Shown: one piece after another, positions 3,391 through 64,000 of the stretch
How the letters are laid out: every line of letters starts with the position of its first letter
Numbering within the stretch: position 1 is the stretch's first letter
NCBI GenBank assembly: GCA_001724265.1
Contig: MEDY01000060.1
Span: forward strand, 1-64,000
Length of the DNA stretch: 64,000 nucleotides
Origin: Rhizaria sp. SCN 62-66
Lineage: Eukaryota
Direction of reading: 5' to 3'
The notes under the pieces: model-generated
Databases searched by the model: none
What the model was told of the DNA's origin: nothing
What the model saw: only the letters and a program-made list of their open reading frames with translations
Translations under genes and position numbers: made by a program

Positions 3391-5984
3391 TTACGCGCCC
3401 GGAGCCGTGAGCGCAGCGGCGCCGTGCAATGCCAACAACGCTTCCTTGCACTCTGCGACGCCCTTCTCGAGCGCATCGATGCTGGCGCGCCCCGTCGTGC
3501 GCGCGGCAACAAGCGCCATGGCGCGGCGCAACTGCTGCTCGAGCGCCTGCTGAGCCGCGGCGGCCTTCTTGCCGAGCGCGTCGTGCTGCGCGCGGGCTGC
3601 CTTCATCTGCTCGTTGCACTGCTGGTCCGTCAGCAGCCCGCCCAGCGCGGCCTGCTCCGCCTCCATGCTCACCTGTTGTGCACAGACAGAGACAGGGGCA
3701 CACAGCACAGTAGTCGACAGTGTCACCATCATGTAAAGAAAAACGCGCGGAGTGCAGATAACAAGGTGAGCGAGTGATAATATAGTTTGTTGACGTGTGC
3801 AATTCGTGTTGTCGCTTGCTCTTCGTATGCGATGTAAACGTAACATTTCGTGTGTAGATTCTAGACGTACCACGGCGGCCTCAGTCTTGGCGTTTTCTGC
3901 GGCGATCTTAGCGCCCGTCTCCTCGAGCCGCTGCAGCTCACCCGCGGCGCCGTCCCGCGCCGCGCGCGCCATGGCCATCTGCGCCTGTACCGTGGCCAGC
4001 CGCGCCTGCGCCTCCTCCCGCTGCGCCTGCGCCTCCTCCCGCTGCGCCTGTGCGGCCGCGAGCTACGCTGCCCGCTGCGCCTGCGCCGCATCGGCGCGGC
4101 TCTGCTGGCGCTTGCGCGCGGCCTCAGCCTTGCGGACCAGCGCCGCCGTCTCCCGCTCGAGCTTGGCGCGCTCTTGGCCCAGCGCAGCCGTCTCCGCCGC
4201 GGCCGCAGCCAGCGCCGCGCTGCGCAGTGAAAACAGTGTGGGTGTGCGTGTGTGTGTAAGAAAGAGAGAAATAAGAGAACAGTGAGTCAATCGAGTGATC
4301 TGTGTCATTAGCCAGTGAACGTTACGATAGCCTTGAGATAATTTGAGCGCTAGACATTGCTCTTTGACGGACCTGTGTTGCTGCGCGTTGGACTCAACCT
4401 GCGCTCGCACCTGAGCAATCTCATTCTCGACTGTCTCCACGGCCTTGCTGACCTGCTTGACCGCCTCCGCCGCGTTCTTTACAGCATCGGCGGCGTCCTT
4501 CACCGAGTCCCCACCGCGAATCGCCGCGGCGGCCTCCACAGTCTCAGCGTCGACGCGCGCGCGCTCAGCCCGCGCGGCCCGGGCCTTGTCGCGCATTACG
4601 GCGGCCTGCTGCGCCACCGCGCGCGCCGCCGCGGCTTCGGTCTCGCGCGCAGCCAGCGCCGCGCGCGCCGCCGCCAGCCCGGCTTCTGCGCCCCCCTGCC
4701 CCGCCTCGGCCTCCGTGCGCGCCGCCGTGGCCTCAGCCAGCGCCGCACGCTCCGCAGTCAGCGCCGCCGCCGCGCGGTCCGTCTCGGCCTTAGCCGCCGC
4801 GAACGCCGCGGCCTCGGTGGCCTCCTCCGCGGCCGCCGCGGCCAGTACCGCTGCGATGTATTGTTCCACAGTCTCAGTCTCGATTTTAGTCTCAGCGCCG
4901 GTCTCACTTTCGCCCGGTGTAATACTGGCATGTTTGCGGCCGCAGAGCGTGCGCAGGGTGGCGGCGTCGCGCTGCAGCGCCTCGAGTTGCTCCCGCGCGG
5001 CGACGCACTCGGCGTCGAGCGCGGCGGCCTCAGCCCGCAGCGTCTGGACCGTAGCCGCGGCGTCAGCGAGGGCTTCCTTGCGGCCCGCGGCGGCCGTGGC
5101 CAGCGCGGCGCCCTGGGCCGCCTCGGCCGCGGCCGCCACACCGCTCTGCGCCAGCGCGCGCTCGACCTCGCTCAGCCGCAACGCCGCAGCGACCTCGGCC
5201 TGCCGCGCTGCGTCAAGCTCGGCTTGCTTTGCTGTGCGCGCGGCGGCTGCGGCCGAGGCGCGCGCCGCCGCGGCTGTCCACGCGCGCGTCGCTGCCTGCG
5301 CAGAGCGCTCTAGTGCGGCCACATCAGCACTGCTGTCAGCGCTGCTATCAGGGCGACTGTCATTGCTGTCACTGCTGGCGGCGCTGCGGCTGCGGCAGCT
5401 GCTGCTGCTGCTGCTGCTGGCCTGGGCGGCGACGAGGCTCTTGACGGTGGCCTCGGTGGTGCTACGCGTGTCCTGGATCTCGCGCCCACAGGCGGCGCCC
5501 ACAGACTCGATGATCGTTGATGTCTGCTGCGCGCTCTGCACCACTTCTTGCGTCTCCTTGACGCGCTCCTCTGTGCACGCGCGAGAAATGGGGAAGTTGG
5601 TGAGTATTGTTGAAGGCTGAGGACAGTTTTTGTTTGTTTTGAGTTTGTATCGTGGAAATGTCGAAGCACGTACCGAGCTGGCCGATGATGGCGTTGCACT
5701 CCTGGAAGGCGGCGTGGACGGTCGCGGACGCATTCATGCTGCGCTCGCGCGACTGGCGCATGCGCTCCTGGAGGTCCGTCTCGTGGACCTGCTGCTCTGC
5801 GGACGCGCGCAGGACGTCCTCTGCGACGAGATGGTGAGAGGCGACAGTTCGGGGCAAAGGTTAGGTGGGTAACAAGAAATGTCAAGAGTGAGCGAGTGTG
5901 ACATCTGTTTGGAGGCACGGTGTGACCTTGGACTTGAAACCGTGTTGACGTACGCAGCATAGCATGGAGAGACTGAGAGCTCAT
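3391..5984 (-). CDS. Uncharacterised long coiled-coil protein. Five exons (5984-5954, 5820-5674, 5570-4373, 4219-3871, 3672-3391) with an in-frame TAG at 4065-4063
   Basis: Four GT..AG introns (three GTACGT donors, one GTCCGT) join the exons in phase. Continuous Ala/Glu/Gln/Arg heptad-like sequence. ORFs 4063..5733 and 3391..3978 are in the same frame, separated only by the TAG. TAA stop. Confidence 0.7.
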
Positions 5985-12228: not shown

Positions 12229-13764
12229 TCACCAAATCTCGAGCTGCGCGTCGGGCTGTCCGAAGCGCGCCTTATTCCGGTCAAACAGCGCGACGAGCGT
12301 CTGCGTGTACCGCCCGTGCCACAGCCGCACATCCTCAAGCGTTGGCTGCGCAATACGCGGCAGCCGCAGCGGGGCGCCGAAGACGGTGTGCATGCCGTGC
12401 GTGCTGTGCGGCAGCAGTCCCGGGGCGCCCCAGGGGAGGACACCGGGAATCTGCCAGCGGTTGAGCCAGAGTCGCAGTCGCAGCAGGCCTGGCACGTTTG
12501 CGTAGTTGCGCTCCTCGCCGAACGTGTAGACTGGCAGCAGCGCGTACCCGTGGCGCAACGCGAACTTGACGAACCCGCGGCGGCGCTTGAGCCACACGCG
12601 GTGTCGTCCGCGCGCGTAGATAGTCGCCTCTTCGAACCCGCCTGGAAGCAGCGCGACGTCGCGGCCGCGGCGCATGAGCCCGGCCACCGTGGCCGCGTCG
12701 GCCGGCGCGTAGCCGCACCAGCGGAGGATGAAGCAGAAGGGCGCGAGGCGGTGCAGAAAGGAGGAGATGAGGAACGTCACGCGCGGGTTCGCTGCATGTA
12801 ACTGCGGACTAGCAACGCCGCCGAGCCAGAAACTCATTGGAAAGATTCCGTGCGGGTGGAAGGCGAGCATCACCGGCGGACTTCCTGTCGCTGCAGACCC
12901 AGACTGCGACTGCGCGCGAGAAATAGCGTCAGACAGTGGAGCGGATAGATTGGCGTTGGCGGCGGCAAACTTGGCTGCTGAGAGCGGGGCGGGCGGGGAC
13001 TGGAGGCCTGGAGGATCAATGTCGTCGCTCTCGCTGGCGCACTCGTCATAGTACGGAAGCGGGGAACCCATTTCCTCCGATGGCGACGGCGACGGCAGCT
13101 GCTACAAGTCAAAGTACGACAACGGTGGCGGCAGAGCGGGCTGTTTGGGCCAAGACGCAGCCTCCTCGCACTGCAGCTTCAGTGGCACCAGCTTCAAATC
13201 GTCTCCAATCTCTGCCTTGGCCTCAGCCTCTGTGTTGGCGTTGGCCTCGGCCTTCGCTACTGGAGCATGCTGTTGTTCTGCGCACGCTTCGGCCTTAACT
13301 GCGGCGGCGCTATCAGCGCTAGATTCGGCCTGCGTTGCGGCGTCCGCGTCGAAGGGCTCGTGACGAATAGCGCGCAGGGCGCCCTCTTCAAAGGTGACTG
13401 AAGTGCCGTGCGGCTGGTAGAACTCGTGGGGACGCGTGGCGCTGCCCAGGAGCCAGATGGCGAATGGCCAGGGCTTGATTTCAACCAGGAGCGCGTAGAT
13501 TTGCGGCAGCAGCAAGCACGTTGCGGCGACGATGTAGCCGCGGTAAAGCAGAAACGCAATCAAAAATGGGCAGATGGAGCTGAATACCCACACCGTGATC
13601 AGAAGTCCGATCGCAACCTTCGATAGCAGGTGCTGGGCGGGCGGGAACGGTCCGCTCGTGCTCACGTGCAGATAGTCCGACTTTGGGTCAAGGGACTTAT
13701 TGGCCGCTGCGGGGGCCCTCGTCGCAGAAACAGCATCGGAATTGCAGAGCATAGCCGATGCCAT
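12229..13764 (-). CDS. DGAT2: DGAT2/MOGAT-family acyltransferase (511 codons) with an in-frame TAG at 13104-13102
   Basis: Motifs FHPHGIF, LLPGGFEEA, RRGFVKFALRHG, LPVYTFGE and VFGAPL lie in ORF 12229..13071. The N-terminal transmembrane segment lies in ORF 13102..13764, in the same frame. TGA stop. Confidence 0.88.
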
Positions 13765-30000: not shown

Positions 30001-31465
30001 AGAGGACGCGCGCGCACAGGGTCGCGCCGCGCTCAGTCGCGCGCAGGCACAGCGTGCGCAGTCGCAGCACGCGCAGCAGCAGCTCGTGGGCCGCGCGGGC
30101 ATGACGACGGCGCGCGCGGTGCGCGGGCAGCAGCTGGATCACCGTGTACCGTCGAATCTCTCGGTACACATGGGGACGCGCCACCGGCGCGCGCGTGGCA
30201 ACAACAACATCCAGAACACGGAGATGGGTGTCGAAGAGCTGCTGCGCGCGGAAGTGCCTGTGGACGACTTGTTGCTGCACTCGGCGTCGGGTTGCGGCCG
30301 CTGCTGCTCAGCATTCCTTGGTGTCGGTCTCATGATTTGGAGCTCCATTGTTGGTTGCATCTTCTGGGTCATTGACCGCGTGCCCTACTGCGCGCGTCGC
30401 TGGGGCAGCGCCGCTCACGCGACAAGGCGCACCACCGGCATCAACTCGAGTGAGGCGTTGGCGAACGAGCTTGAGGAGGACGCGCAACGTGAAGAGGCTG
30501 AGGCTGTGCGCCATGAGCGTTGGCGGCCCGACGCGCGCCGTATTGCGTGCCTGCTGCCCAAGGACATCTTGGCGTCGCACTTTGCGTGCGCTGGACATAT
30601 GCCCGTCTACTACTGCGCGGCCGCACTCAACTTTGTGTTACGCGTTGCCTGGACGCTGACCATCGCACCAGCCCTCATTCCAGGGCTGCGCGCCGAGTAC
30701 CTGTCGTTCCTGATCGCCACTGCCGAACTTATTCGTCGTGGTGTTTGGAACTACATGCGTCTCGAGTCTGAACACATTCGTAACCTGCGTGCCGGCCGCG
30801 CTGTCAACCTGGACGCTGTCGGCATGGCATCGTTTAACGCGCGCCACACCTCATCCGCCACTGCTGATAGCACGAACGCTGACGCCGACGCTGACGGCAG
30901 CCCAACTGACGACGGTCACGACGGCCCTGACGGCCATGAACACTACGACGACGAGCATGCCCACGACGCTAACGCTGTGGTGCGCCCGCAGCGCGGCAGC
31001 TTTGATGGCCGCGAAGACAGCGAGATCTACGGCGAGTCGTTGATGCCGCAAGATGCCGCGGCCGCCGCCGCCGCGGGCGTGACCGTCCGCGCACGCGCGC
31101 CGTCGGTGTCGGTAAACATGAACATGACACGCGACCGTCGTGCGTCGACGGCTGTGTCGCCGTGGGGCGACGACCGCGTGCTCGATGAGCGTCCACACGC
31201 GGGCGCGCGCACGTCGTCAGACACCAACTTGAGCGCCGACATGGTGGACGATTCCGAGCGCACGAATCTGCCGGCCGAGATGGGCTACCGGCGCCGCTTC
31301 GGCAGCATCAGTGTGCAGGGCCCGCGTGTCGAGATCGAGATGGGTGTGATGGGCGAGCGCGAGCGCGAGCGTGAGCGTCAGCGTGAGCGCCAGCGCGAGC
31401 GCGAGAGGGCTGAGAAGGAGAAGGCGGAGGAGGATGAGCTTTACGACGCTATCCAGGCGTGCTAA
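21004..31465 (+). CDS. XPR1: SPX-EXS phosphate exporter/sensor (XPR1/SYG1/PHO1 family), about 3,400 aa. Exons 21004-21054, 21161-21235 and 21395-31465
   Basis: The two short exons encode MVKFGAYLQAEMIAEWR|EKYIDYKRLTK, the SPX N-terminus. QLDKVNDF and LNLTGFVKILKKHDK lie near 27770-28055. EXS motifs: GDNLTS, FRLMQCLR, NAGKY, WDIAVDW, ELIRRGVWNYMRLESEH. Two GTACG..AG phase-0 introns. Confidence 0.9.
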
Positions 31466-35943: not shown

Positions 35944-37152
35944 TCATTGCATGTCTGTGTGTTCGTTTTGAACGCGCACATGTGTGAACGACGAGTTGTC
36001 ATGCGCAGGCTCAAGTGCGTGTGTCTCCGCGTTATTAGATCGCTTGATGGAGTGAGCGTACACGTGCGAGTGATTATTAGGCCCGCTAGCTGCACTGAGA
36101 TCAGGCGCTGGCAGCATAAGCAGTCCGAGAAACGGCCCGCTAAGCCCCAGACTTGGCGCCGCGTCCAGCCCCGGCGCCGCGAGCGCTGCCGGCGGCCGCG
36201 GCGGTTGTGACGGAGGCTGCGCCAGATGTATCTGTGGCTGCACCAGCGGTCGCGGCGGCTGTGCGAGCCGCTGCGGTGGCTGTGCCAGCTGTTGCAGTTG
36301 CTGTGCGAGCGATTGCCCTGCCTGTGACGGCTCGCGCGATGTTTCTAGACGCAATGAGGCTGGGTGTGGCAGCGACGCGACTTGTGGCAGCGACGCCAGC
36401 AGCGGCAGCGACGCCGCAGTGAGCGACGGCGGAGCAAACGCGCCCAGTGACGCCAGTGAAGCGACTGTGAGCGACGGTGCGAGGGTGACCGTGAGCACTC
36501 CGTGTGCGTGCGTTCCGCTCTCGCATGACCGAGTACCAGCGCCAGTATGACTGGTGCCGCGACCGTTCGCGTGTGCGTGACTGCTCGTACCGCTGTGAGT
36601 ATAGTCTCCTGTATTGTATTGCATGTCGTCGTTGTCGTTGATGCCGTTATTGATGTTGCTGTTGCAACAAGTGCAGTCGTCGTTTGTGCAGCCGCCGTCT
36701 TCGCAATCGCCACTACCTCTGGAGCCGCCTTGGTCCTTATTGTGTACGTTGTAGCGCCGAGTAGGCTTCAGATCATGCGGGCTCGTCAGCTTAAGCTCGT
36801 GCACCGATGGCTTTGGCGGTTTGACTCTGATTGCATCCGTGCTTACTACGGTGATCATGGGCGCTATGCCCGCCGGCAGCTCAGGTTCTGCAGGGACTTC
36901 GAATGCGTCGCGCGCCGCCCGCGCGTAGGCGAAGGCGCAGGCGGCTGTGGCGACCGTGAGCGCCAAAAGCGCGAGCGGCGACAGCGGCAGCAACGGCCAG
37001 CCTGACCTTGTGCCAGGATACGGCGGGGTTGAACCGACTGCGGAACTTGTCACAAACAGTACGCCGTCATCCGAGTCGTTGATTGACTGGGCGGCGGTCA
37101 GCGTGGCCGTGGCGGCGAAAGTGAGTAGCAGGAGAACGATGCGAATGCACAT
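35944..37152 (-). CDS. Uncharacterised single-pass membrane protein (signal peptide, short ectodomain, TM helix, low-complexity tail)
   Basis: Signal-like MCIRIVLLLLTFAATATLTAA and hydrophobic PLALLALTVATAACAFAYA. 402-aa ORF, TGA stop. Confidence 0.6.
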   Translation of the reverse strand: MCIRIVLLLLTFAATATLTAAQSINDSDDGVLFVTSSAVGSTPPYPGTRSGWPLLPLSPLALLALTVATAACAFAYARAARDAFEVPAEPELPAGIAPMITVVSTDAIRVKPPKPSVHELKLTSPHDLKPTRRYNVHNKDQGGSRGSGDCEDGGCTNDDCTCCNSNINNGINDNDDMQYNTGDYTHSGTSSHAHANGRGTSHTGAGTRSCESGTHAHGVLTVTLAPSLTVASLASLGAFAPPSLTAASLPLLASLPQVASLPHPASLRLETSREPSQAGQSLAQQLQQLAQPPQRLAQPPRPLVQPQIHLAQPPSQPPRPPAALAAPGLDAAPSLGLSGPFLGLLMLPAPDLSAASGPNNHSHVYAHSIKRSNNAETHALEPAHDNSSFTHVRVQNEHTDMQ

Positions 37153-38093
37153 TGGATCAGACTTAAAGACAAATAGTCGACACGCTGTTTGTCCTGCGTG
37201 TTATGAGAGTAATTGATCGTCAGTGTGCGCTGCAAGAAGATAAAATGCGTGGGCTTGTTAGCATTAGCAAGATCACCTGTTAGTATTTGCAAGACAGTCT
37301 ATGTCCAAGTGGTACGTTAACTTCGCATTGTGGACCTGTGATCCGAAGGTCTCGTTTAGCTCGCGATCGAATGCGGGTCGTCGATCAATTCATCGTTCTG
37401 TTTGGATGTGCGACAGCCATTGGCAAGTACGCTCTAATTTCCTGTTTTGTTGTGCGACTTTCTTTCGGTTTTATTCTTTCTTATATGCAGCACTGAAGTA
37501 TACTGCACTTAAAGTAGTCTCCAATGACACTTCAAGTCGTTCCTTTGTCGTAACTGCTGTTCGTCTACAAAGTACGCACAACGCGTTTCTTTCGAAGGTC
37601 CGGTAATGTACTTTGTTAATTTGTTAACCATTATACTTATTTAAATTGATTTTCTTTCAATACGACTCTATCTTCACCACGAAAGGTGTGATTTTGCATC
37701 AGGTCGATCAAAACACAGGAGGTTCATATAATCAAGATATGTACTGGTGCAAAAATAAACCAATTAATCCTTTCAACTGATGTTGAATGAGTAGATATCC
37801 AACTTTTGTTACGGATTACTACTGTCTTATCTGAGTACAAGTCAAAATGTCTCAATTGGGACAACAACGGCGAAAGTGGCTGACGAAGCGAGTTCGGAAA
37901 CGTTAACTCTATCAAGGGTGCTGGACATGATCTGGTCGTAAACGAGAGATATACTGCTACAATCTCAATTTAATTTTGTATTTAGATGCTATACTCTTAT
38001 TATATGCTGCATGTTATCTATTGCATCTCACATTCATCCTTCTCTTTCTCTTGCTTTCCTCGGTCGTCTTCGCTCAGTCCTGACGAGGTTTGC

Positions 38094-45098: not shown

Positions 45099-48000
45099 AT
45101 GTCGGACGAGCCACACGACTAGCAAGTCGACAACGCGATCGACAGCCTCGAGTTCGAGGCGATTCAGCAGCACGCCCGGTCGCTCCTGGATGACCGCCAA
45201 GCGAAGCGCACGCTGTTTAACGACGACTACGACGATCAGTCAGTCCCGCAGAGCGTGATCCCTGGCTCTTTCTCCCAGCCCGCCTCGTACGCGTTTGTCC
45301 CGCATTTGGGCACTGACGGCCCTCTGCCCGCGCCGCCACCCGCCGCCGCCGCCGCCGGAAGCCCCAACGCGCGCCTGGACAACACCACTAGCTCTTCTTC
45401 CGCCGGCTCGCTCTACGCCCGCAAGAAAGCCCGCGCAAGCGACGTGGCCTTCTCGCAAACACTCAGTCAGGACCCTTTCGATAGTATCAATAGTCAAAGC
45501 CATGCGGGAGTCGTCAGTCCTCACTACGGTGCGCTGTCACAGGACCAAAACCCCGTTTACAGTCAGAGTCTGGGGGCCAGCGAGGCCTGGACGCTTCAGG
45601 TCGGCACTCTGTCCCAGTCGCAACAGCAGCAGCCACTGCCACCGTCTCAGTCTCACGGGGGCGCTTCATCGGCGGTGACGGCGCCGGCGTCCCAGGACGA
45701 TGACAACCTGTTCACAGGGCTCGCCGGTGTCAAGCAAGCTGTGCTGGCGTCACAAGAGACTGTGGCAGCGTCACAAGATGGTGATACGCTCTTTGACGGG
45801 CTGGCCGGCATCAAGCAGACAGCACAACACTCTTTGTCTCAGTCGCAGTCTCAGAGCAATTTCCCCACAACGTCTCTTGCCCGTAAGTCGCCCGCTCGCG
45901 CCGCTGCGACTCCTGCCAATGCCCCGGCGCCTGCTACTACTGCGCGCGCGGCAGCGCCCGTGGCTGCGAACGACTTTTACGCCGATTTCGCTCGTGACGA
46001 AGGTGCGTATGAGCCTGATGAACCGGATGCAGACGAATTGGCAGAGTTCGAGGCTGCAAAGGCCGCATACGCACAGTCGCACTCTTCCTCCTCCTCCTCA
46101 AGTGCGCGTGCGAGTGCGAGTTCTAGTGGGGTGCCGGGGATGAGTGAGTGGGAAGAGTACGATGCCGCGTATGCCAAAGAGCTTGCCGCTAAGGAAGCCG
46201 CCGAAGCCGCTGCCAGGGCCGCGAAGGCTGCCAAGTCTGCCAAGACTGCTGCTGGCGCGACTCCGAGTGCTAAGGTTGCGTCTGGTCCCAGCGCCGCCCC
46301 AGTCGAGAGTCCGTACTATACTGGCCCTTCCTCCTCCGATTCTTCCTCCTCCTCAGCCTCAGCCTCTTCCTCGACCTCTTCAGCTTCGACGTCTGCATCG
46401 GCGGCGGTTCATGGCGCGGACGCTGGCTACAGCTACGGCGGCGTTAGTGCCCACACGCGCGCTGGCGCTGGCTTGACTGCGCACCCTCTCCGCCGTCTCC
46501 CCGCGCCGGCTGGGGCGGCGCTATTGACCCGTGCCCCCGCCACGGGTGGTTTCGCCACTCTAACTACCCATACGGCCTCGGGCGCGGGTGGCGGCAGCGG
46601 CGACGGCGACGCCGCGGGCACTCTCACGCGTCGCTGGTATCTATCGGTCGAGAGCGAGGCTGAGCACGCCCAGAGGCTTGCTGGTGTCGCAGCGGCACAC
46701 GCCGGGTTTGCGGCAACCTCTGTCGCCGCTGCGGGAGCGGCCCGGGGCGCGGGACTCGGTTTGTTAAGCCGCCCCATGGCGGAGATCGTCGCCGAGGCGG
46801 ACGCTGACCGGCGCAGGGATGACATAGCCCGCGCACAACGCCTCGCTGCCGAAGCCGCGGAGGCCGCCGAGCGCGCTGCCAGTGAGAAGAAACACAAAAA
46901 GGGCGGTGGCCGCCGCGAGCGTGCTGCTGCTGCGGCTTCGAGTGCGCAGGAGAAAGAGCAGCTTCTGGTGGATAAATACTCGCCGCAGCGGTACATCGAG
47001 CTGCTGTCAGCGGAGCAGTGCAATCGCGACGTGGTGACCTGGCTCAAACAGTGGGATTTGCGCGTGTTCAACCGCCCAGTGCCTGATATGCCTGCCATCG
47101 CGCGGCCTGACCCGCCGTTCGGTGCCCCCCGGCCGGGTCAATTTGCCGCCGCACCGCACCACCAGCAGCAGCAGCCGAAGCCTGACTGGCGCGATGGGCC
47201 CGAGCAGCCAGTGATCCTGCTTGCCGGTCCTCCCGGCGCCGGCAAGACGACTCTGGCACACGTGGCGGCGCGGCACTGCGGCTACCGCGTCATTGAGGTC
47301 AACGCGTCGGATGACCGGTCAATGGACGCGGTCGCGCATAAGATCCGCGGTGCTGTCGAGACAGAGAACGTCATGGGTGAGCGGCGGCCTAACTTACTCG
47401 TACTCGACGAAATCGACGGTGCACTGGGAGGCGACGACGGTGAGTCCCGTGCGGCCGGCGCGGGCGCAGACTCCGCTGTCGGGCTGTTGATTGAGATGGT
47501 CAAGGTCTCACGGGCCCGGGCGCGTGCACGGCAGGGACGCGAGTCAAATGACGACGCCAAGAAGACCCGCGGCGAGGACAGCGACAGCGACGACGACGGC
47601 GACAAAGACGGGAAAGACGGCGCCGCCGCGGCAGCGGGGAAGAAAGGCAACAAGCTCGGTCCCGGTGGCAACGGTGTGACGCGGCCTATCATCTGCATCT
47701 GCAACGACCCCTTCGCGCCTTGCTTGCGCCCGCTGTTGCCGTTTGTGCGGCTTATCCACGTCGAACCCGTCTCCAAGACGCGGCTCGTGTCGCGGTTGAC
47801 TGCGATTACGGCCAAAGAACGGATCCCGGCCGAGCCGCGCGCGCTGGCAGCTCTGGCGGACCTGGTCAACTGCGACGTCCGCTCGGCGCTGCACACGCTG
47901 CAGTTCGTCAAAGCACGGCTCCCGCGGCGCGGCGCCAAACACAAGGCGGTGGTGGCGTCGGCGGCTGGGGCGGGTGATGCTGTGGGTGAAGAGGCTGACG

Positions 48001-49712
48001 ATGACGGCGACGCGCCGACGCGGTTAACCGTTGCATACCTCTCACGGCTCTCTGTCGGCGAGAAAGACATGGCCAAAAACGCCCTAGCGCTGTGGGAGGC
48101 CGTCCTGTGCACGCGCCCCATCCGCGCTGCCCTCGCAGCACCGGCGTTCGAAGCCGGTGCAAGCGCTGGAGTCGGTGCCGCGTTGTCCGCGCCCACGGTC
48201 ACGACGCGTGCCCCGACCACCGCGGCCGCTGTCGTCGCCGCCACCGCGACGAGCGCGAATGCGGGGGAAGGCGGGATTGACGCTCTGGCGGTGCTGCCCA
48301 CGGTCATCTTGGACCATGGTATGGTCGACAAGGTCACCGACGGGGTTCACCACAACTACCTATTCGTCCCGGCCACGGACCCGGATTTGGCCCGTTTAGC
48401 GGGCGCGGCAGAGGCACTAGCGTGGGTCGACTCCCTTGGTCCTTCTTGGGCCGACTACCAGCCCTATGCACTGCTTGGCGTCCGCATTGCGCTTAATTGC
48501 CCGCGCAAGACAGCGTTAGAGTTCCCCAAACCGGCCTCCCTGTGGCGCCAACGCCGTGTGGACGCCGTTTTAGACGCGTTCTTCGCTGCCGACGGGCCCT
48601 GGGCCGCCCGCGCGCTGCCGCGCCGGGACGGACCGCTGTATCTCTTCTCTTTGCTGCAAGACATCCTCGCGCCTGCGCTCGGCGGCAGCGGCGGCAGCAG
48701 CGGCGGCGGCGGTGGCGCACTTCATCTCATGGCCGCCACAGAGCGCGCAGCAGTCGCCGCTCTCGTCGCGAAAATGTTAGCCGCCGGCTTAACTTTCACG
48801 CGCGCGCCGTTGTCCTTCGCTGCGGCGTCAGCTGCGGGCCCATCGATGGTGTTAAGTCCTGATTTAGCGTCGGTGACCACGTACTACTACTCCCGTGACC
48901 ACGCGTTCTATGGGTACACTGGCGGCGGCCTCGGTGGACGACTGCGCTACGGCACGCGCCCGCCTCCAACCATCTTCGACGCCTACCGCGGGCTGCCGGG
49001 GCTCAACCCGGCTCTCGTCAGCTCGCGCGCGCTCGACGCCGCGGGCGGCGCGTTTGCAGGCGCGGGCGCCGAGGCAGGGACGCTGTCGGCGGTGGCGCCC
49101 AAGAGGCGTGAGCTACCGTCGCAGTTGAAGCAGACGCTGGCGCGAGAGGTTGAGTTTGAGCGCATTCGGCGCGAAGACGCCCGCAGGCGTGAGGCGGCTG
49201 CGGCGGCGGCGGAGGAGGAGGCCCGGTACAGCGGCAGCGGCGGCGCGCGCGGCGGGCAGCAGTGGCAGCGCATGCATGACTTCGACGACGACGGCGACGA
49301 CGACACTAATAACGAGGAAGAAGAGGATGACGGCGATGAGGGGGGCAATCAGAGCAGGAAGGGTAAGGCTAAGGCCGTCGCTGAGGCTAAGGCCAAGGCC
49401 GCCACTAACGCCGCTGCTGCGGCGACGGCTGCTGAGACTGCTGAAAAGGCTGCGGCGGCCGCTGCGGCCCCGCCAGCGAAGCCCCGCGCGGCCCCGGTCG
49501 AAATGCGGTCCTTCTTCCAACGCATCCCCCGCGCGCCCCGCGCTTCCACTACTGGCGCCGGCTCTGGTGCTGATGGGAAGACGGCGGGTGGTGAGGATGA
49601 GAGCAAACAGAGCGTAAGCGGGGCAGCGCACCCACCGCTGAGCTATGTGTTCTTGGAAGGGTTCTCGAATGCGGTGAAGCGGCCGGTCAAGATGAGCGGG
49701 CTTTTTGGCTGA
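45099..49712 (+). CDS. CTF18: Chromosome transmission fidelity factor 18 (RFC-like AAA+ clamp loader). The likely start at 45099 requires reading through a TAG at 45120-45122; alternative start near 46140
   Basis: LLVDKYSPQRYIELLS..NRDVVTWLKQWD, GPPGAGKTTLAH, EVNASDDRS, LDEIDG, RPIICICND and the C-terminal EGFSNAVKRPV. Confidence 0.92.
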
Positions 49713-53982: not shown

Positions 53983-55398
53983 ATGATGCGCAAGACACTT
54001 GCCCATCTCGCCGCCAAGTCGTCATCCTCGTCCGCTGCACTGCTCGCCCGCGCGCTGCCCCGCGCCTCCTTCGCCTCCCCCGCGTCCGCCCCCGCCGCCG
54101 CCGCCGTTGCTGCCGCCTCCGCGACTCTCCCCGCGACTCCCCCGCACGTCTCGGCGACCGTGCAGGGCGAGCGCTACGCACAGTATCTTGACTGCGCGAG
54201 CGCGACCGTGGGCATGGTGCTCGAATCCCCTTTCGAGCTCACTTTCCGCAACGCCGACCGCGTCGCCCACCAGGCCATGTTCTACGAGTTCAACCGCGTG
54301 CACTCCTCCGCGCCCTTCGCCAAGTCGCTTGGCTTTGCGGACATCCCCATGCCCGGCTCGCTGCTGCTCGCGCACGCCGGTGCCATGTCCCACGTCGACA
54401 CGTCGCGCGAAGTCTGGGACCTCGGCTTCAAGAACGCCGTGTACGTGCGCCCTGTGATGGCTGGCGATACGCTGACCAAGAGCTTCTGCATCCAGTCGCT
54501 GCGCAACACGACCAAGGGCGACGGCACGATTATGTCGATCAAGTGCGAGCTCTTTAACCAGTTCGGCAAGCTCGTTTTCACGCTTGACAAGCAGATGCTC
54601 TTCAAGGACGTGACCAACCCGTTCGCCATCACTGCCGCCGTCGCCGCCGCCAACGCCGCCGCGGCCGCCGCTGCCGCCGCCGCGCCCGTCCCGGCGTCTT
54701 CTCTCAGCGCAACAACAGCAGCCGCTGGCGGCAGTGGCGCTAACGTCCCCGTGCGCCGCTCCCTCGTGGCGTCGTCTGTTGTCCGTGAGACGATCCTTGA
54801 GAACGCGCAAGCGCTGACCTTCCCCGCCACGCGCCCGCTCGTCCCGCGCCAGTGCTTGCTCCACGTGCCCGTCGTTCCCCTGGGCACGTCTCGCCACCTC
54901 GAGTTCTGCACTCGCCACCGTCTGTCGCATCCGCTCCACGTGAACCTCGCTACCCACGCCCCGCAAGACCTCGTTCTGCCTGGTATGGCGGTGGTTAACC
55001 TTGTCCACGCCGCGACGAACCGATCGCTGTACGAGGTCCTCCACGAGACGACGCTGCGGTGCGATTTCCTCGACCGTGTTGCCCCCACGGACGCGGTGGG
55101 CGCTGTGACCTTCATCGAGGGCATCACAGAGGTCCCCGGTGGCGCCGCGGGGCGCGTGTCCGGCCTCGCTGACGTCCGCGCCGTCACGCTGGGCGTCAAG
55201 AACATCGACGTGTGCCGCGAGCTTGCCGGGGCAGAGCTGCCGACGGAGCTGTTCACGCGGGAGATGCGCGCAGAGGAACTCGATGCGTTCCTCGCGGAGA
55301 AGGTGCCCGCGCTCCGGGGCAAGGTCGTCCTGCGGTCGGTCCGCTCGCTGCTTCGTCAGTCGCTGTATGCGCGCGCGGAGCAGATCCCGCTTCTGTGA
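53983..55398 (+). CDS. Double hot-dog (MaoC-type) hydratase, similar to mesaconyl-CoA hydratase, with a mitochondrial-type presequence
   Basis: SSAPFAKSLGF, DLGFKNAVYVRPVMAGDTL and ELFNQFGKLV. A second hot-dog unit contains HPLHVN and VAPTDAVGA. ATG at 53983. Confidence 0.72.
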   Translation: MMRKTLAHLAAKSSSSSAALLARALPRASFASPASAPAAAAVAAASATLPATPPHVSATVQGERYAQYLDCASATVGMVLESPFELTFRNADRVAHQAMFYEFNRVHSSAPFAKSLGFADIPMPGSLLLAHAGAMSHVDTSREVWDLGFKNAVYVRPVMAGDTLTKSFCIQSLRNTTKGDGTIMSIKCELFNQFGKLVFTLDKQMLFKDVTNPFAITAAVAAANAAAAAAAAAAPVPASSLSATTAAAGGSGANVPVRRSLVASSVVRETILENAQALTFPATRPLVPRQCLLHVPVVPLGTSRHLEFCTRHRLSHPLHVNLATHAPQDLVLPGMAVVNLVHAATNRSLYEVLHETTLRCDFLDRVAPTDAVGAVTFIEGITEVPGGAAGRVSGLADVRAVTLGVKNIDVCRELAGAELPTELFTREMRAEELDAFLAEKVPALRGKVVLRSVRSLLRQSLYARAEQIPLL

Positions 55399-56158
55399 GC
55401 GAAGCGCATCGAACGCGGAAACGCACAAAGGAACAGATGCTGTGTACGCGCGCGCGGAGCAGAGCAGAGCAGAGCATAGCCCGCTCCTGTGAGCGTAGAG
55501 TAGATGCGCAAACGCCGATGTTGGGGTGAGCTGGTGATGATGGGAAAAGGCTGAGTAGTGCGCGGTGGGCGTGCTGTCTTGTTTTATATGGAGCACTGTT
55601 TATGCTGAGAGATTGAACTGTTGTTGATATAAGTATTGTTACTTCTGCTGACAAAAATGAAAACGAATAAGAATACTATGTACAGCTTATGTATGTGTGA
55701 TATAAGAAGAAATTATTGTTATTACTACAAATATTACCAAAAAAGAAAACAACAAACCAAACGAAAGTGCACACCACGCAACATAAAAGAGAATACATTT
55801 CACAAACTAGTAATCCAGGATTACTTTTCTTTTCCTATTACGAGAGTATTGTTATTGCGAGACAGTGTAGTACATTTACTCAAAGAAGAATAAGAATAAG
55901 AGAAACAGAAGAGGAGTGAGTGTCAGCCAAACAAAGTGCACAAAAGAAGCAATTGTTACGACTGTTCGTTTGTGACGAGTGACAAGATTACTGCTATTGG
56001 TTTGTGACGTCGCAACGAAAGAGATATGAGATCCTGGCCGAGTCACAACATATGCTCCATGAGTTCATGATCGCGACTGCACAATACGTAAGCCTTTTCT
56101 TTAGTATTAAACAGTCGCTGTTGTTCATTGCGAACTGTGGTTAACCGTTTTAAAGTGT

Positions 56159-57646
56159 TCAGTGGCCGTGATTAAAGAAGCCGAGGACGTCCTTGATGAG
56201 GATCTGCCAGCCCACCATGACAACAACTTCGACAACGATGAGATAGATGATGATATACTCAAGTTTCTCACTGTGCGCAACCTCAAGCTGGTCCGCAACC
56301 ATGTCAAACAGCTCCTTGAGGATACCAAGACGCTTGTTGAGTAGACCAACACGCTTACCGAGCTCTAAGTACTTAAACAGCTTCTCGTACACGTGCTTAT
56401 ACCGGTCTTGCTCCCAGAAGAACTCGGGATCGTCGAGGATATCAGCGTGCAGGTTCACGTTGTTGCGCTCGATGAAGAGCTTGCCGATCTTCTTGGCCAT
56501 CTCGTTGCGCGTGAGACCGATCGAACCCGTCTTGGCCAGAGCTTCGGGAAGCTCCTTGCTCTTCTCAATCTCCTGGTCAATGCGCTCCTCAAACACGTTC
56601 AGCTTGACGCACTGCGCCATTGCAAAGGCGACCGAGAGCTTCTCCAGCGATGCGTCACCGGCGAGCATGACCGTGTCGTTGGACACGTGCGAGTGCGATC
56701 CGTACACATACTCCATGTGTTCCACGCCAGCCTTGCGTTCGCGCGCCGTCAACGGGTCCTCTTCGAAGCGTGCCAGCATGGCCACCAGCTCAGCCTCCTC
56801 GGCGGGGGTGCAGTTAAAGCAGGCGAGGCAGCCGTACTCAAACACGAAGGCGTGCTTTTGCATCGACAGCGCTTCGGTGCGGATCTTGATCTGGACGACA
56901 TCTGAGCCGAAGAATGTGAGCGAAACGCGTGACAACTCGAGAACTTGCTGCAGCGAGCGGGGCGCACCGCTCTCGTCGCCCGCGTCAACGTGAGAGACCC
57001 CAGAGCCCACACCACCAGCACCGGCACCGGCGGCAGCGGCCGCAGCGGCGGCGGCGGCGGCGGTGAGGTCTGAGGCGCTGGCACGGGTGGAGCGCACCGA
57101 CGGAAGCGACTGTTGCGCAAGATTCGAGGACGCGCGGGAAATGGCAGGCACAGGCGCGGCGGTGACGGCGGAGCGCGCGCGCGTGGTCATGAAATGGTAG
57201 AGCTTGGCGAGGTGGTACGTATCGCACGTGCAGTAGGCGGCGACGCGGTAGCGGGTCTCTTCCTCTTGTTCTTCACTGTCGGAGACGTCGGCGTCGGCGT
57301 GGCGCAGCGGGAGGCCCTCGGACTGCTGCTGCTGGATGCGTTGGGCGCGGCGCGAGCGGCGCGCGCGCTTGCGGTACTTCTGCATAGGCGCGACCGCGGT
57401 GGAAGCGTGCAGCCCTTCGTGAAGCCCCTCCGCGTGCGACTGAGCGAAGGAACCGTCAGAATGGTCGCCGCCGTCGCCGTCCGTGTGGTCGCCCAGGTGC
57501 ACCGACGTCTCACCGGGAGCGGTGTCATCGCTGCGCAGGACGGCCACCTTGGAGGACGCTTGCTGGGCCTGGGCGTGGCCCGAATGAGCGTGGATACTCT
57601 GACTCAGTGCGTCGTCGGCCAGCAGGGATTGCTTCTTGTCCGACAT
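56159..57646 (-). CDS. RMD1: RMD1/DUF155-family protein
   Basis: VAAYCTCDTY, FVFEYG, EKLSVAFAMAQCVKLNVFE, VNLHADILDDPEFFW, YLELGKRVGLLNKRL and KLEYIIIYLIVVE. Confidence 0.9.
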   Translation of the reverse strand: MSDKKQSLLADDALSQSIHAHSGHAQAQQASSKVAVLRSDDTAPGETSVHLGDHTDGDGGDHSDGSFAQSHAEGLHEGLHASTAVAPMQKYRKRARRSRRAQRIQQQQSEGLPLRHADADVSDSEEQEEETRYRVAAYCTCDTYHLAKLYHFMTTRARSAVTAAPVPAISRASSNLAQQSLPSVRSTRASASDLTAAAAAAAAAAAGAGAGGVGSGVSHVDAGDESGAPRSLQQVLELSRVSLTFFGSDVVQIKIRTEALSMQKHAFVFEYGCLACFNCTPAEEAELVAMLARFEEDPLTARERKAGVEHMEYVYGSHSHVSNDTVMLAGDASLEKLSVAFAMAQCVKLNVFEERIDQEIEKSKELPEALAKTGSIGLTRNEMAKKIGKLFIERNNVNLHADILDDPEFFWEQDRYKHVYEKLFKYLELGKRVGLLNKRLGILKELFDMVADQLEVAHSEKLEYIIIYLIVVEVVVMVGWQILIKDVLGFFNHGH

Positions 57647-59536: not shown

Positions 59537-60229
59537 GCGGATGTGCTGCGATGCAACAATTGCCGAGGTCAAGCTCGAGTAAGTTCACACATATCACACA
59601 GTACACCACTGTCCCCACACCGCTTACTGTATGATAATGCACTGCCGTCATAGTCGTCATAATACGAGGAACGGTACACTCCAAATTAGTTATGTTTTGT
59701 GATGTGATGTGATGTTTTGTTCTGTTTCACCATAGTTACCTAGCACAGAACGGACGAGGTGGGGACGCGGGGAATCAAACCGTGCGTGCCCCGACCGTCC
59801 GGTCAACCGACACATAGAGAGAGAAAGGCACAAGGAAGAGAAGATCCAACTGCACGCGGCAACACAACGATGTGTTTCTGTGTGTAGACTCAAATTAAAT
59901 GTTTACCGTTAAGCACTGTTATGATTACACAACCACTTTTTTAAAAATACAGTACGATCCCAAATCAGTTGATCCAATAAGACTACATATTGTGTATCTA
60001 TCTATACAGAAACAGGGAAAATGTAATTTAGGCAAATTGGCCAACTATCTAACAATATTAAATGCTGCGAACAGTTCCAACAAGCAAGCAAGCAAAAACA
60101 GCAAGTGTAACATCCCTGTGTTGTCCTGCTGCTGCTACATTGTGATGGATTGCTCCGTGGCTGTGTTCCAGCACGCGACTCGTGAGTACTGCTGTTCACG
60201 TGTTAAGCACGTGTTCTAAGTGCTCGTGC

Positions 60230-61716
60230 TCACGTGTAAGGCACGTGTTCGTCGAAAATGACCCACACAAGCGGCGTCGTCGTCCACGCCAGTACTACGT
60301 CCAGACTATAATGCATACGGCGCACCACAAGCAGCATACTTGCAGCGGCCGCAGCAGCCCACGCCAGTGCGGGCACGGCGCGGCCCAGTCCGCGCGAGCA
60401 CGAGCCCCGTGCACCGCCCATAGGAAGGACCCGGGGGACGCGGCGACGCGCAGGGTTGCGCCGGGAGCCGCTGGTCTTGGCGCCAGTAGCCAGAGCACCG
60501 TCACTATGGCCGCCATCGTAGCCGTCATACGCGTTATACACCGCGCCAGCGCCTGTGCCAGTTGCAGTGCCAGTCGCGGGGACGGCCTCTTCGTCGTTAT
60601 CGTCGTCATCCTCTTCGAAGTCGCCGTTAATATCGTCCGTGATATCCCCGTTGTTGTTGCCGTCGTTGTCATGGTGATGCGTCATATCGCCGTCCGAGTC
60701 CGAGTTGTTGTCGTCATGTGTCCCCCCGGAACGCGTGCCTTCATACCACACCCCTGCCCCCGCGCCTGACGCCGCGCCCGACGCCGCGGACCCATGCGGG
60801 TACACGCGCCAGAACCGCGTGACGAGCAGCGCACAGAGCACGTACACGACGGCCTGCGCTGAGAACACAGAGTCGCCGCAGCCAGTGAGCGGCGTCGAGC
60901 CGGCGAGGCCGGGCCACGCGGCGGGCCACGGGGACAGCGCGGCGGCGGCCGCCTCCATGAGAGTGGCGGGGGGCGCGTACAAAGGCGACTGGGGACGGCA
61001 CGTGTCGTTGGGGCCCGGGAGCGTGGTCGAGAGGAAAGACGCGATACGCAGGGTCTGGACGAGGACCGAGGCGGCGGCGACGCGGCTGAGCAAGCCTACG
61101 GTCGTTACGCGCGGGGACGGTGCGGTGGGGAAGAGGAACAGGGGGCGGCGGAGGAGAAACGAGAGCATGAAAAGCGCGGTACCGGCGATGAGGGCGGCGT
61201 GGAGAACCGCGCAAACCTGGTCCAGCAGCAGCGACGGCGTCGGGAGGAGCTCGAACCCCAGGTCGTACAACGGCTCGCGCGGAACGTGGAGGTAGTGCGC
61301 GGCGCGCGTGGCCAGGCTGTGGAGGTACTGGAACGCGTAGGCGAGGAGCAGCAGAGGACCGTGGCGGCGCAGTGCGCGGGCCTCGGCGGGCAGGTTCGCG
61401 CGCAGGGAGTGCGCCAAGCCCTGTGTTGCCGATGGCGTTGTGGGAGTGTTGTTCAAGGTGAGAGGAAGAAAGAGGGATTCAGTTGCGGATATACAACAAT
61501 AGAGATGAAAGAGGATCAGGGGAGGTAAAACCAATGTGGATTTGTCAAAGTGGTGGTGGTGGGTGGTTGGCGACGTACATTGAGCGTGCTAGTGATGAAG
61601 AGCCCGGGCTCGGCAACACAAGAGCGCAGAGAGCGGCAGCAGCTGCCCGACGACGCCGCAGACGCAGACGAGGAGCGCAGATGCTTGCCCTTGCCGAGAC
61701 GGTCTTCGTCACCCAT
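60230..61716 (-). CDS. Plant-type inositol phosphorylceramide synthase (IPCS/ERH1; sphingomyelin-synthase/PAP2 superfamily). Exons 61716-61579 and 61420-60230
   Basis: FQYLHSLA..HYLH..PLYDLGF, QTLRIASFLSTTLPGPN..CR, GCGDSVFS and RRMHYSLDVVLAW. Phase-0 GTACGT..CAG intron. Confidence 0.82.
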
Positions 61717-62286
61717 TCGCGCGGGTTCTTGGCGAAGTGGGATACGCGTGAGCGGAAGAGAGAGGTTTGGGGGAGGACGCGGTGGTGCACCAGAGCGCGG
61801 GAGAGGAGGTGACTGACTGCAGTGACGAAGTGAGGCAAAAGAGGTCAACTTTGTGAGAGGATTTGAAGGCATAAACCGCGACCACTGAAGCTATAATAAG
61901 AAATCCACACATAGAAATGACGTTTAATTAATAGAGCTCTACATAATCTTTATTTGTCGATCTCAGGTGAGATTGCGTATCGGAAATTCAAACGCGCCAC
62001 ACACCCAAAACCGTTTTCGTTCCGCATCGTGATTGGAGCTAGCAGTGAGCAGCTTCATTAAAACATATCTACCGAGAGATATACTCGAAATTATAGCGAT
62101 ATTTCTTCTGAACCTGGTTATATTTGCAGTACGTCTATTATATCAATTTATTACTCATACACAGACACACGTCTATACGTATTTTCAGCTTCTTTTCGCA
62201 CCCAGTCGATTTTGAACTTGATCAAACCCTCCAAAGCCTCCAACAGTCCTGCAGCGCTTCTCGTCTGCGCACCTGACGTCTGCGCG

Positions 62287-64000
62287 ATGCCCATCACCCC
62301 TGCCTTTACTTGGGAGCAGACGGACGACACCGTCAAGGTTGTCATCAAGTCCGTCTCCATCAGCAAGGCCAGTCTCTCTCTCTACGGTACGTTTTTGTAT
62401 TTTCAACACACGCTTGCAGTTACTCACTTAGGCCTGCATCCCACATGACATCCCAACCGCGCTCATCGCATGTACCGCTTTGTCTACTGCTTTTGTTGCT
62501 TGCGCGCGCAGTCTCTGATGTGTTTGTGAAGCTGAGCTCGCCACCTCTGCTGCTGCAGCTCGACCTCCTCCACCCCGTCGTGCCTTCTCGCTCCCGCGCC
62601 GTCGTCGTCCCGGGCGGCGTCGAACTCCACCTCCGGAAGGCCACCACCACGGCAACTACCGGCGCTGATGCCGCGTGGTCCGCGCTGCAGCTGCCTGCGG
62701 CGACTCCGGCGCAGGCGCGGTTATAGCGGCGCGCGGCGTCGATCGCTGCCCAGGACGCCGCCGCGGCCGCCGCGCGCGCCGCGGCCGCCGCGCGCGCGTC
62801 TGAGCGCAAGGCGGCCGCACGCGAGGCCGACTGGGACCTGGAGGCGCGCATGCGGCTGCTCGGCGAGCGGATCGTCCAAGAGGAGCGCGATGCTGCTGTT
62901 GGGGACCTCCTAGCATTGCATCCTCCCACTGCCACTTCTAACAACAACAGTCACAACAAAAACCGTAACAAGCAACTGATGGATGGTGATAGTGCTGCCG
63001 TGAGCGCTGCGAAAGTGGGGCCCGTTGCAGCGGACGCGGCAGATGACAAGCGTGGCGCGACCGCAACCGCATCCGACGCAGCCTCCGTCTCTAGTAGCAC
63101 CCCCTCACCGGCTGCGTCTCCTGCACCTGCGGTCGTTGCGAAGCCTACTGCTGCTGCTGCTGCGACAACTCGCGTTCTGCCGCCGCCGCGCGTTCTGCCG
63201 CCCCCGCGCCGCGCCGCCGGCTCCGCGGCTGCCGCGCCCGTGCTCGTTTCCTTCACCGCGCGCACCGGGCCGTTGGCCCACTTGCCCGCGCGTGAAGCCG
63301 CCGACCGGAAGGCCCTGCTCACGGTCCGTGCTCTCACCCGCGCCCGGCTCCGCGGCGGCCACGGCGGCGGCCAAGGGAGCGCCGGGGGCGGCGCGGTGGG
63401 CGAGGACGGGCTGAGCGAAAGCGAGCGTGTTGCGTGGGCTTACAAAGACAAAGGCGACGCGTTCGCGCGTGAGGGCGCGCTTAAGTCCGCTGTGGAGGCG
63501 TATACGCACGCGCTTGCGCTGGATGGATTCTGCGGGGACGCGCTGGCCAACAGGGCGGCGGCGAGGCTCCGGGCCGCGGCGGAGGCCTGGGGAGCGACGG
63601 CGGGCGCGGTCGCGGTCGAGCTGCCAGCGCCGGTCTACATCGCCGCGCCTGCAGCAGCCTCTGCTCGTGCGGCTGTGTCCGCATCTGGTGACGGGGAGCA
63701 GCAGCAGCATCAGCAGCAGCAGGATGACAAGAAGTCTCAGAACGACGACAATGAAGAAGAGGAGGAGGAAGAGCATTTTGATAGCGCCACTGCCTCCACC
63801 ACTACCACTGTTGATCCCGAGCCTAAACCGGAGTCTGAGCCTGAGTCTGCGCAAGTAGGTGAGGAGGATTTCATGGCGCTGCTTGCGCTGCCGTCCCCTG
63901 TCAAGCCCTCCGCGCCCGCACCGATGCCCACGGTCGCCGCGCCTCTCGCCTGTCGCCCCGCTCTTGCGGCCGCGGCGGCGCATTTGGCCGGCGCAACTGC
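62287..64000 (+). CDS. DNAAF4: Dynein axonemal assembly factor 4 (DYX1C1), CS domain plus TPR. Exons 62287-62386 and 62512 to beyond the window end, with an in-frame TAG at 62724-62726
   Basis: CS domain MPITPAFTWEQTDDTVKVVI..SDVFVKLSSPPLLLQLDL..LRK..W. After the TAG: RRAASI, LPPPR..VSFTAR..LPARE and the TPR AYKDKGDAF..AVEAYTHALALD..LANRAAARL, in the expected order. Confidence 0.88.

Follow-up and report, generated by a model that had tools for sequence, protein, structure and literature searches.

The codon UAG is probably read as an amino acid throughout the genome that this DNA comes from, with UAA and UGA as the sole stops, so that a TAG within a gene of the DNAAF4 type would not be a stop that kills this gene. 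We place the probability of this reading at roughly 60%. The evidence comes from a small sample, the 64-kb stretch of DNA that was analyzed (hereafter, the window), with four in-frame TAGs and the ends of 20 genes. The support differs between the four sites: one TAG lies opposite a residue in all 21 orthologs aligned, one lies between the two halves of a DGAT2-type acyltransferase, and the other two are supported by coding score and gene structure.

The DNAAF4-type gene is situated at the right end of the window, and consists of the following parts:

62287..62386, forward strand: exon 1 of the DNAAF4-type gene, 100 nt from the ATG at 62287, encoding the N-terminal half of the CS domain.
62387..62511, forward strand: intron of the DNAAF4-type gene, 125 nt, GTACGT...GCGCAG, GC 0.50.
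62512..64000, forward strand: exon 2 of the DNAAF4-type gene, open at the window end, encoding the rest of the CS domain, the RR.AS linker, the middle block, and the first TPR.
62724-62726, forward strand: in-frame TAG in exon 2, followed by CGG, with 71 exon codons before it and 424 open codons after it.

The N-terminus encoded by exon 1 aligns with a protein from a sister species (P0005) and with named orthologs. Removal of the intron joins two frames (...LSLY/VSDVFVKL...) at a junction that is unbroken in the orthologs. The TAG, for which the letters quoted in a preliminary description of this DNA were found at 62724-62726, falls between the CS domain and the TPR, one codon before a near-invariant RR.AS motif. 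A single frame is common to the stop-to-stop ORFs on either side, 62277-62726 (149 codons, ending in the TAG) and 62727-63998 (424 codons and open, in agreement with the more than 420 open codons that had been described). Open frames are cheap at 63% GC, however, as seen from an antisense ORF of 297 codons at 63108-63998. As an open frame alone is weak evidence in such DNA, it is homology together with codon statistics that makes this site more than a product of chance. Directly flanking the TAG, the coding score of the gene's own frame is 6.8 and 16.3, against -6.6 and -11.5 for the other two frames, and over the 424 codons downstream it amounts to 74.

The Pfam matches of the gene pieces themselves are weak and below the cut-offs (CS, E 0.21; SHQ1-like CS, E 0.084; TPR_1, E 0.017). 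A word-based search returned one relative, the sister protein P0005, with an identity of 65% in the 139 residues surrounding the TAG and of 58% overall. Downstream of the TAG, the two share near-identical blocks, and their length differences are in-frame only. When a profile of these two sequences was compared to 1.84 billion representatives, 154 proteins matched at E <= 0.001, among them a protein named Dynein axonemal assembly factor 4 in UniRef (P0093), one Pigoraptor protein, and green-algal proteins. Matches that span the CS region to the TPR contain both CS and TPR by Pfam, while the matches of the profile in the PDB were TPR look-alikes only, such as RPAP3 (TPR, E 6.8e-8). The CS region aligns over its full length with orthologs whose own CS matches exceed or approach the cut-off (P0087, 30.2 bits; P0079, 21.3 bits), and the first TPR repeat is present before the window ends. 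Between the two lies a middle block, PPPR...FT..R...PARE, which is nearly identical in the sister species and recognizable in P0038, P0041, P0087, and P0093, and which we take to be the "DYX domain". The protein thus resembles DNAAF4 / DYX1C1 / PF23 in its CS domain, its basic linker with RR.AS, its middle block, and its TPR repeats. It differs from them in being very Ala-rich, with long low-complexity inserts and Pfam matches of its own below the cut-offs; its C-terminus lies beyond the window. Conservation of DNAAF4-type features on both sides of the TAG, which had been put forward from the sequence alone, is therefore borne out, with the CS domain upstream, and the RR.AS motif, the middle block, and the TPR downstream.

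An alignment to orthologs at the position of the TAG, which the preliminary description had suggested as a check, was made for the first 420 residues and 21 orthologs, hand-picked from the profile matches that cover the region from the CS domain to the linker. All 21 orthologs have a residue in the column of the TAG, without a single gap (Ala in 6, Lys in 5, Gln in 4, Ser in 3, Glu in 2, and Leu in 1), followed by RR in 20 of them and then by an Ala/Ser-Ile motif that is conserved. The TAG thus occupies a position at which the protein requires an amino acid. In the sister species, this amino acid is Ser. Among the four TAG sites, this is the only alignable column, and it is too variable for the amino acid assigned to UAG to be read from it.

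Every stop in all six frames was then scored with a codon log-odds score trained on 11 ORFs. Of the 227 stops flanked by 50 stop-free codons in both directions (144 TGA, 48 TAG, and 35 TAA), only two TAGs, at 4063(-) and 13102(-), combined a strong coding score upstream with a strong one downstream in the best frame. The TAG at 62724(+) came next, and fell just under the threshold because of the intron upstream of it. No TGA or TAA among the 227 qualified as lying in-frame within coding sequence, none was seen in the window, and no frameshift or other stop was detected in the roughly 15,500 codons that were scored. Shorter windows of 20 codons yielded, besides 4063, antisense false positives only. 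Together with a TAG near the start of an AAA-ATPase gene, three further genes are interrupted in this way:

3391..5733, reverse strand: gene for a coiled-coil protein, with introns at 4372-4220 and 3870-3673; TAG at 4063-4065 in the middle exon, followed by CTC.
12229..13764, reverse strand: gene for a DGAT2-type acyltransferase; TAG at 13102-13104, followed by CAG.
45099..49712, forward strand: gene for an AAA ATPase, with the AAA domain detected by Pfam; TAG at 45120-45122 as codon 8, followed by CAA.

In the coiled-coil gene, the flanks of the TAG have coding scores of 14.6 and 13.8, and since both introns (153 and 198 nt) are multiples of 3, the frame at the TAG is fixed. The TAG of the acyltransferase gene falls within a lineage-specific loop, with the membrane part and its invariant WP upstream and the HPHG catalytic domain downstream. 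Judging by their domains, the DNAAF4-type and DGAT2-type genes would need both halves around the TAG. The site in the AAA-ATPase gene depends on the choice of the ATG at 45099 as start codon. This ATG stands in a typical leader, and the TAG follows after 7 GC3-rich codons; beyond it, the ORF contains no Met for 338-339 codons, though a strong coding score begins immediately. Overall, the use of in-frame TAG is very low, with about 4 per 15,500-19,000 codons, or about one per five genes.

The ends of the genes show the reverse pattern. Terminal stops could be placed for 20 genes, of which 15 end in TGA, 5 in TAA, and none in TAG, and in 15 of the 20 the coding-like segment reaches within 6 codons of the stop. 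Were TAG the stop of one gene in five, the probability of finding none among 20 would be 0.012, and at 15% it would be 0.039. The next base differs as well: the terminators are followed by G in 11 cases, A in 6, C in 2, and T in 1, whereas C follows all four in-frame TAGs (CGG, CAA, CAG, and CTC; 4/4 versus 2/20, Fisher p = 0.0014). As C opens 26.5% of the 15,512 codons, the chance of this among ordinary codons is 0.265^4 = 0.005. The type of codon is by itself weak evidence, since random nonsense substitutions under this codon usage would yield TAG in 67% of cases, and four TAGs out of four then have p = 0.2. That the gene should be intact, as had been inferred earlier, is supported indirectly, by the downstream blocks conserved with the sister species, the intact IFT81 gene in the window, the TAG-only pattern in three further genes, and the lack of TAG at all 20 gene ends.

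The host is an uncultured, GC-rich flagellated eukaryote, seen only in bioreactor and wastewater metagenomes, and the literature surveyed contained no paper describing such an organism. The window is eukaryotic DNA of 63% GC, with long exons and few introns, three of which are clear (125-198 nt, GC 0.45-0.50, with pyrimidine-rich ends closing in CAG). Of its 24 long ORFs, 13 match Pfam, including IFT81 (E 7.6e-30), an amidase, the DGAT2-type acyltransferase, an SPX-EXS protein, a RhoGAP/LIM/FYVE protein, and the AAA ATPase. Named relatives of the IFT81 and DGAT proteins are only 28-48% identical, and come from Chromera, an MMETSP transcript, Saprolegnia, and Mastigamoeba. IFT81 scores lower against Chlamydomonas (220 bits) than against protist transcripts (282 bits), which argues against a green alga as host.

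Several other features of the window stand apart from the TAG genes. A single unbroken ORF of 3370 codons (21353-31462, forward strand) has its SPX and EXS domains only near residues 2195-2597, and its first ~2100 residues are without a Pfam match. The least GC-rich part of the window (36001-38000, GC 0.53) contains a 418-codon ORF (35947-37200, reverse strand) with neither a Pfam match nor a coding score under the codon model of the window, which may not code for protein, or may represent a gene whose composition is foreign. At 8001-10000, inside a Costars-LIM-RhoGAP-FYVE gene (6883-11373), extreme low-complexity coding sequence has a GC of 0.78 and an AT skew of 0.51, and three long antisense or off-frame ORFs are open throughout.

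Two relatives of the host allowed the same features to be viewed elsewhere. A scan of metagenomes with IFT81 yielded 7 kb (5.3 and 1.7 kb) of a sister species, with 83% identity in IFT81 and 79-83% identity in DNA. Its three gene ends are TGA, TAA, and TGA, and it has no in-frame stop; none of the TAG sites is covered for comparison. When metagenome contigs were searched with the DNAAF4 alignment, 600 stretches matched, none of them from a relative, and no mis-binned pieces were found in contigs of prokaryote genomes. A more distant relative (L006; 46% identity in IFT81, 51% GC) served as a control of the method: 22 kb of its 174-kb contig were scanned after retraining on its own ORFs, and no in-frame stop was found. 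One of its genes, of 770 codons (3527-5836), appears to end in TAG, while L006 otherwise prefers TAA. The change, if real, would therefore be confined to a narrow lineage, and this TAG end suggests that it is young.

The last part of the window (60001-64000) recurs in bioreactor, wastewater, and activated-sludge metagenomes: 16 of the 17 runs listed, from 8 studies, hold part of it, and four of the listed runs contain half or more of its sampled words. The window itself may derive from one of these runs. P0039, the 93-residue ORF terminated by the DNAAF4 TAG, occurs on 5 contigs (MGnify, Logan, and ENA). For the DGAT gene, the ORF leading up to its TAG occurs on 2 and 3 contigs under two start choices. 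The five contigs of each may overlap in origin rather than being independent samples. In a poly(A) metatranscriptome, contigs match 63098-63567 and 63561-63885, downstream of the TAG, with 0 differences, and there is no depth over the neighboring intergenic bins or over 61683-62684. Among the listed pieces of four runs, no contig of DNA or RNA bridges 62724. None of the 40 differences listed, out of 95, in the contigs of these four runs falls on 62724-62726, which is no evidence either way, and the depth in independent runs is only about 5-7.

These data also contain features that matter for their use. A GCC/GCG run coding for Ala in exon 2 of the DNAAF4-type gene (62756-62791) matches hundreds of unrelated metagenome contigs, reaches a depth of up to 423 in one bin, and breaks assemblies, so that it must be masked when reads are mapped to this gene. 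In run X4, a second, divergent form of 54001-56500 differs mostly at every third base (e.g., 55335, 55338, 55341, 55353, and 55356), as is typical of a related strain or species that evolves under purifying selection. Public protein sets contain the truncated halves of TAG genes as separate "proteins" (P0039, P0187/P0188), predicted with the standard or bacterial code.

Several other explanations of the TAGs were weighed. They could lie within unrecognized, unconventional, or very short introns, and never be seen by a ribosome. A 7-nt GT..AG (GTTATAG, 62720-62726) indeed spans the DNAAF4 TAG, and is the sole one within a few bases, while the TAG at 45120 could in principle supply an acceptor AG. 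However, the latter is not preceded by a pyrimidine tract, unlike the three real acceptors, and the other GT..AG pairs near 62724 (donors 62675 and 62678, acceptors 62726 and 62753) enclose 52, 49, 79, 76, and 34 nt. No pair around this TAG is thus a multiple of 3, which upholds the earlier statement that the nearest GT..AG is 7 nt long and gives no usable intron. The clear introns, of 125-198 nt, are also poorer in GC than the sequence flanking the TAGs (GC 0.62-0.90; 0.75 and 0.90 for the 60 nt on each side of 62724), and splicing would delete a residue that all 21 orthologs possess, which makes this explanation highly improbable. We also regard it as unlikely that the code is standard and UAG is leaky in these genes, with near-cognate tRNAs effecting programmed or context-dependent readthrough at UAG-C. 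The C after all four TAGs and the CAR after two of them would fit this, and CAR-YYA is the readthrough context of plant viruses, but none of the four sites has the full hexamer, and no stable structure is predicted downstream (fold z-scores of 0.06, 0.08, -0.68, and -0.06). Moreover, known cases of readthrough extend a protein that is already functional, whereas the products made before these stops would be useless (8 residues of the AAA protein, a CS domain alone, and a membrane stub), and the lack of TAG at 20 gene ends would be left unexplained.

Alternatively, the TAGs could be real premature stops, in null alleles or recently formed pseudogenes of the population sampled, or they could be errors in the consensus of a metagenome assembly. 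The Ser of the sister species is one substitution away from TAG if its codon is TCG, so that a fresh nonsense mutation may have arisen at the DNAAF4 site; random changes produce TAG two times in three, and the depth in independent runs is low. Against this, four such codons occur in 23 genes without any frameshift, TGA, or TAA, and two of the ORFs that stop at a TAG were each found on 5 contigs, drawn from three assembly sources. The codon signature downstream of the DNAAF4 TAG is strong over all 424 codons, and the protein that it encodes is conserved with the sister species in blocks, with in-frame indels only. As neither the C after each TAG nor the missing TAG gene ends would be explained, we consider premature stops improbable. 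Editing of the mRNA could likewise remove the TAGs, either from A to I, by which UAG becomes UIG and is read as Trp, as in filamentous ascomycetes, or from U to C. The accessible parts of the literature describe that A-to-I editing in fungi occurs preferentially in hairpin loops and after a U (position -1), with UAG as a frequent target (PMC11156358), and that 71 pseudogenes of F. graminearum undergo restorative stop editing (PMC10776026). The former preferences speak for such editing, and the TAG lies in or beside a loop in 3 of the 4 predicted folds. These folds are no more stable than those of shuffled sequences, however, and 4 affected genes out of 23 is far above the fungal rate. Trp is found in the DNAAF4 column in none of the 21 orthologs, the loss of TAG as a terminator is not predicted by editing, and the presence of flagellar genes shows that the host is not a filamentous ascomycete. 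Taken together, editing appears quite improbable.

Reassignment of UAG as sense, which we prefer, would place the host in established company, as UAG-only changes are already described, in the parts of the literature consulted, for a rhizarian, Iotanema, Scotinosphaera, and some ciliates. In the rhizarian exLh, UAG encodes Leu, and in Iotanema spirale, it encodes Gln (Panek et al. 2017, PMC5304391); for exLh, the available portion of that paper gives 384 in-frame UAGs in 71 genes, with 56 UAA and 15 UGA as terminators. The window resembles these two in that UAG alone occurs in-frame and UAA and UGA are the sole terminators (here, 5 TAA and 15 TGA). It differs in several respects: exLh and Iotanema use UAG often, versus about one per five genes here, and hundreds of conserved sites allowed their amino acid to be inferred, versus one alignable column. 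A bias in the following base is not reported in the consulted part of PMC5304391, and the lineage is different. Phyllopharyngean ciliates have repeatedly reassigned UAG, to Leu or Gln, as seen in metagenome-assembled genomes (McGowan et al. 2024, PMC11687900, in the part available). As proposed here, these are uncultured eukaryotes from metagenomes in which UAG changed alone and would be expected to be decoded by a tRNA(CUA). The genomes of those ciliates yielded suppressor tRNA genes, however, while our tRNA search was confined to the window, and the host is not a ciliate by the style of its genome (63% GC, ORFs up to 10 kb). The Ser of the sister species at the DNAAF4 site, a single data point, recalls the code of the green alga Scotinosphaera, in which UAG encodes Ser (as cited in PMC11687900). 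Ambiguous codes, in which stops also have a sense meaning, are known from Condylostoma, karyorelict ciliates, Blastocrithidia, and Amoebophrya (PMC4967479, 10.1101/2022.04.12.488043, PMC6394959, as far as these texts could be consulted). The window would share with them the use of mid-gene stops as sense, with context deciding, and its sparse use of UAG resembles that of Amoebophrya, in which about half of the transcripts are without reassigned stop codons, according to the section seen of PMC6394959. In these systems, however, two or three stop codons are involved, and the same codon still ends genes, whereas TAG is found here at 0 of 20 ends.

If UAG is sense in this organism, it would be decoded by a tRNA with the anticodon CUA, by virtue of an eRF1 that recognizes UAG poorly, or through both. 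No tRNA gene was found in the 64-kb window by ARAGORN, and there were no Rfam matches. A C following the stop is the weakest context known for termination in eukaryotes. The C after each of the sense TAGs suggests that eRF1 may still compete at UAG, and thus that the reassignment is young or incomplete. A more specific scenario, which we put forward tentatively and consider rather doubtful, is that of an early, ambiguous reassignment: UAG would have been purged from gene ends, and would now be returning as sense, at low frequency and only at sites where the next base is C, which would shield it from a release factor that has kept its recognition of UAG. The amino acid might then be Ser, as in the sister species.

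For the study of such organisms, a practical consequence is that standard gene callers split or truncate their genes, as exemplified here by the 93-residue P0039 and the split DGAT gene; functional inventories of such metagenome eukaryotes will therefore be wrong as long as the code is not set. Few nuclear genomes depart from the standard code, and changes of UAG alone number a handful. If real, the change described here would be a further independent case, in a GC-rich non-ciliate known only from engineered water systems, in which UAG is used sparsely and in a restricted context, and it would help to trace the loss and recapture of a stop codon. The "ambiguous intermediate" and "codon capture" are stages of codon reassignment that theory has proposed and that have seldom been observed, and if the early-stage scenario is true, this organism would be a natural example of them.
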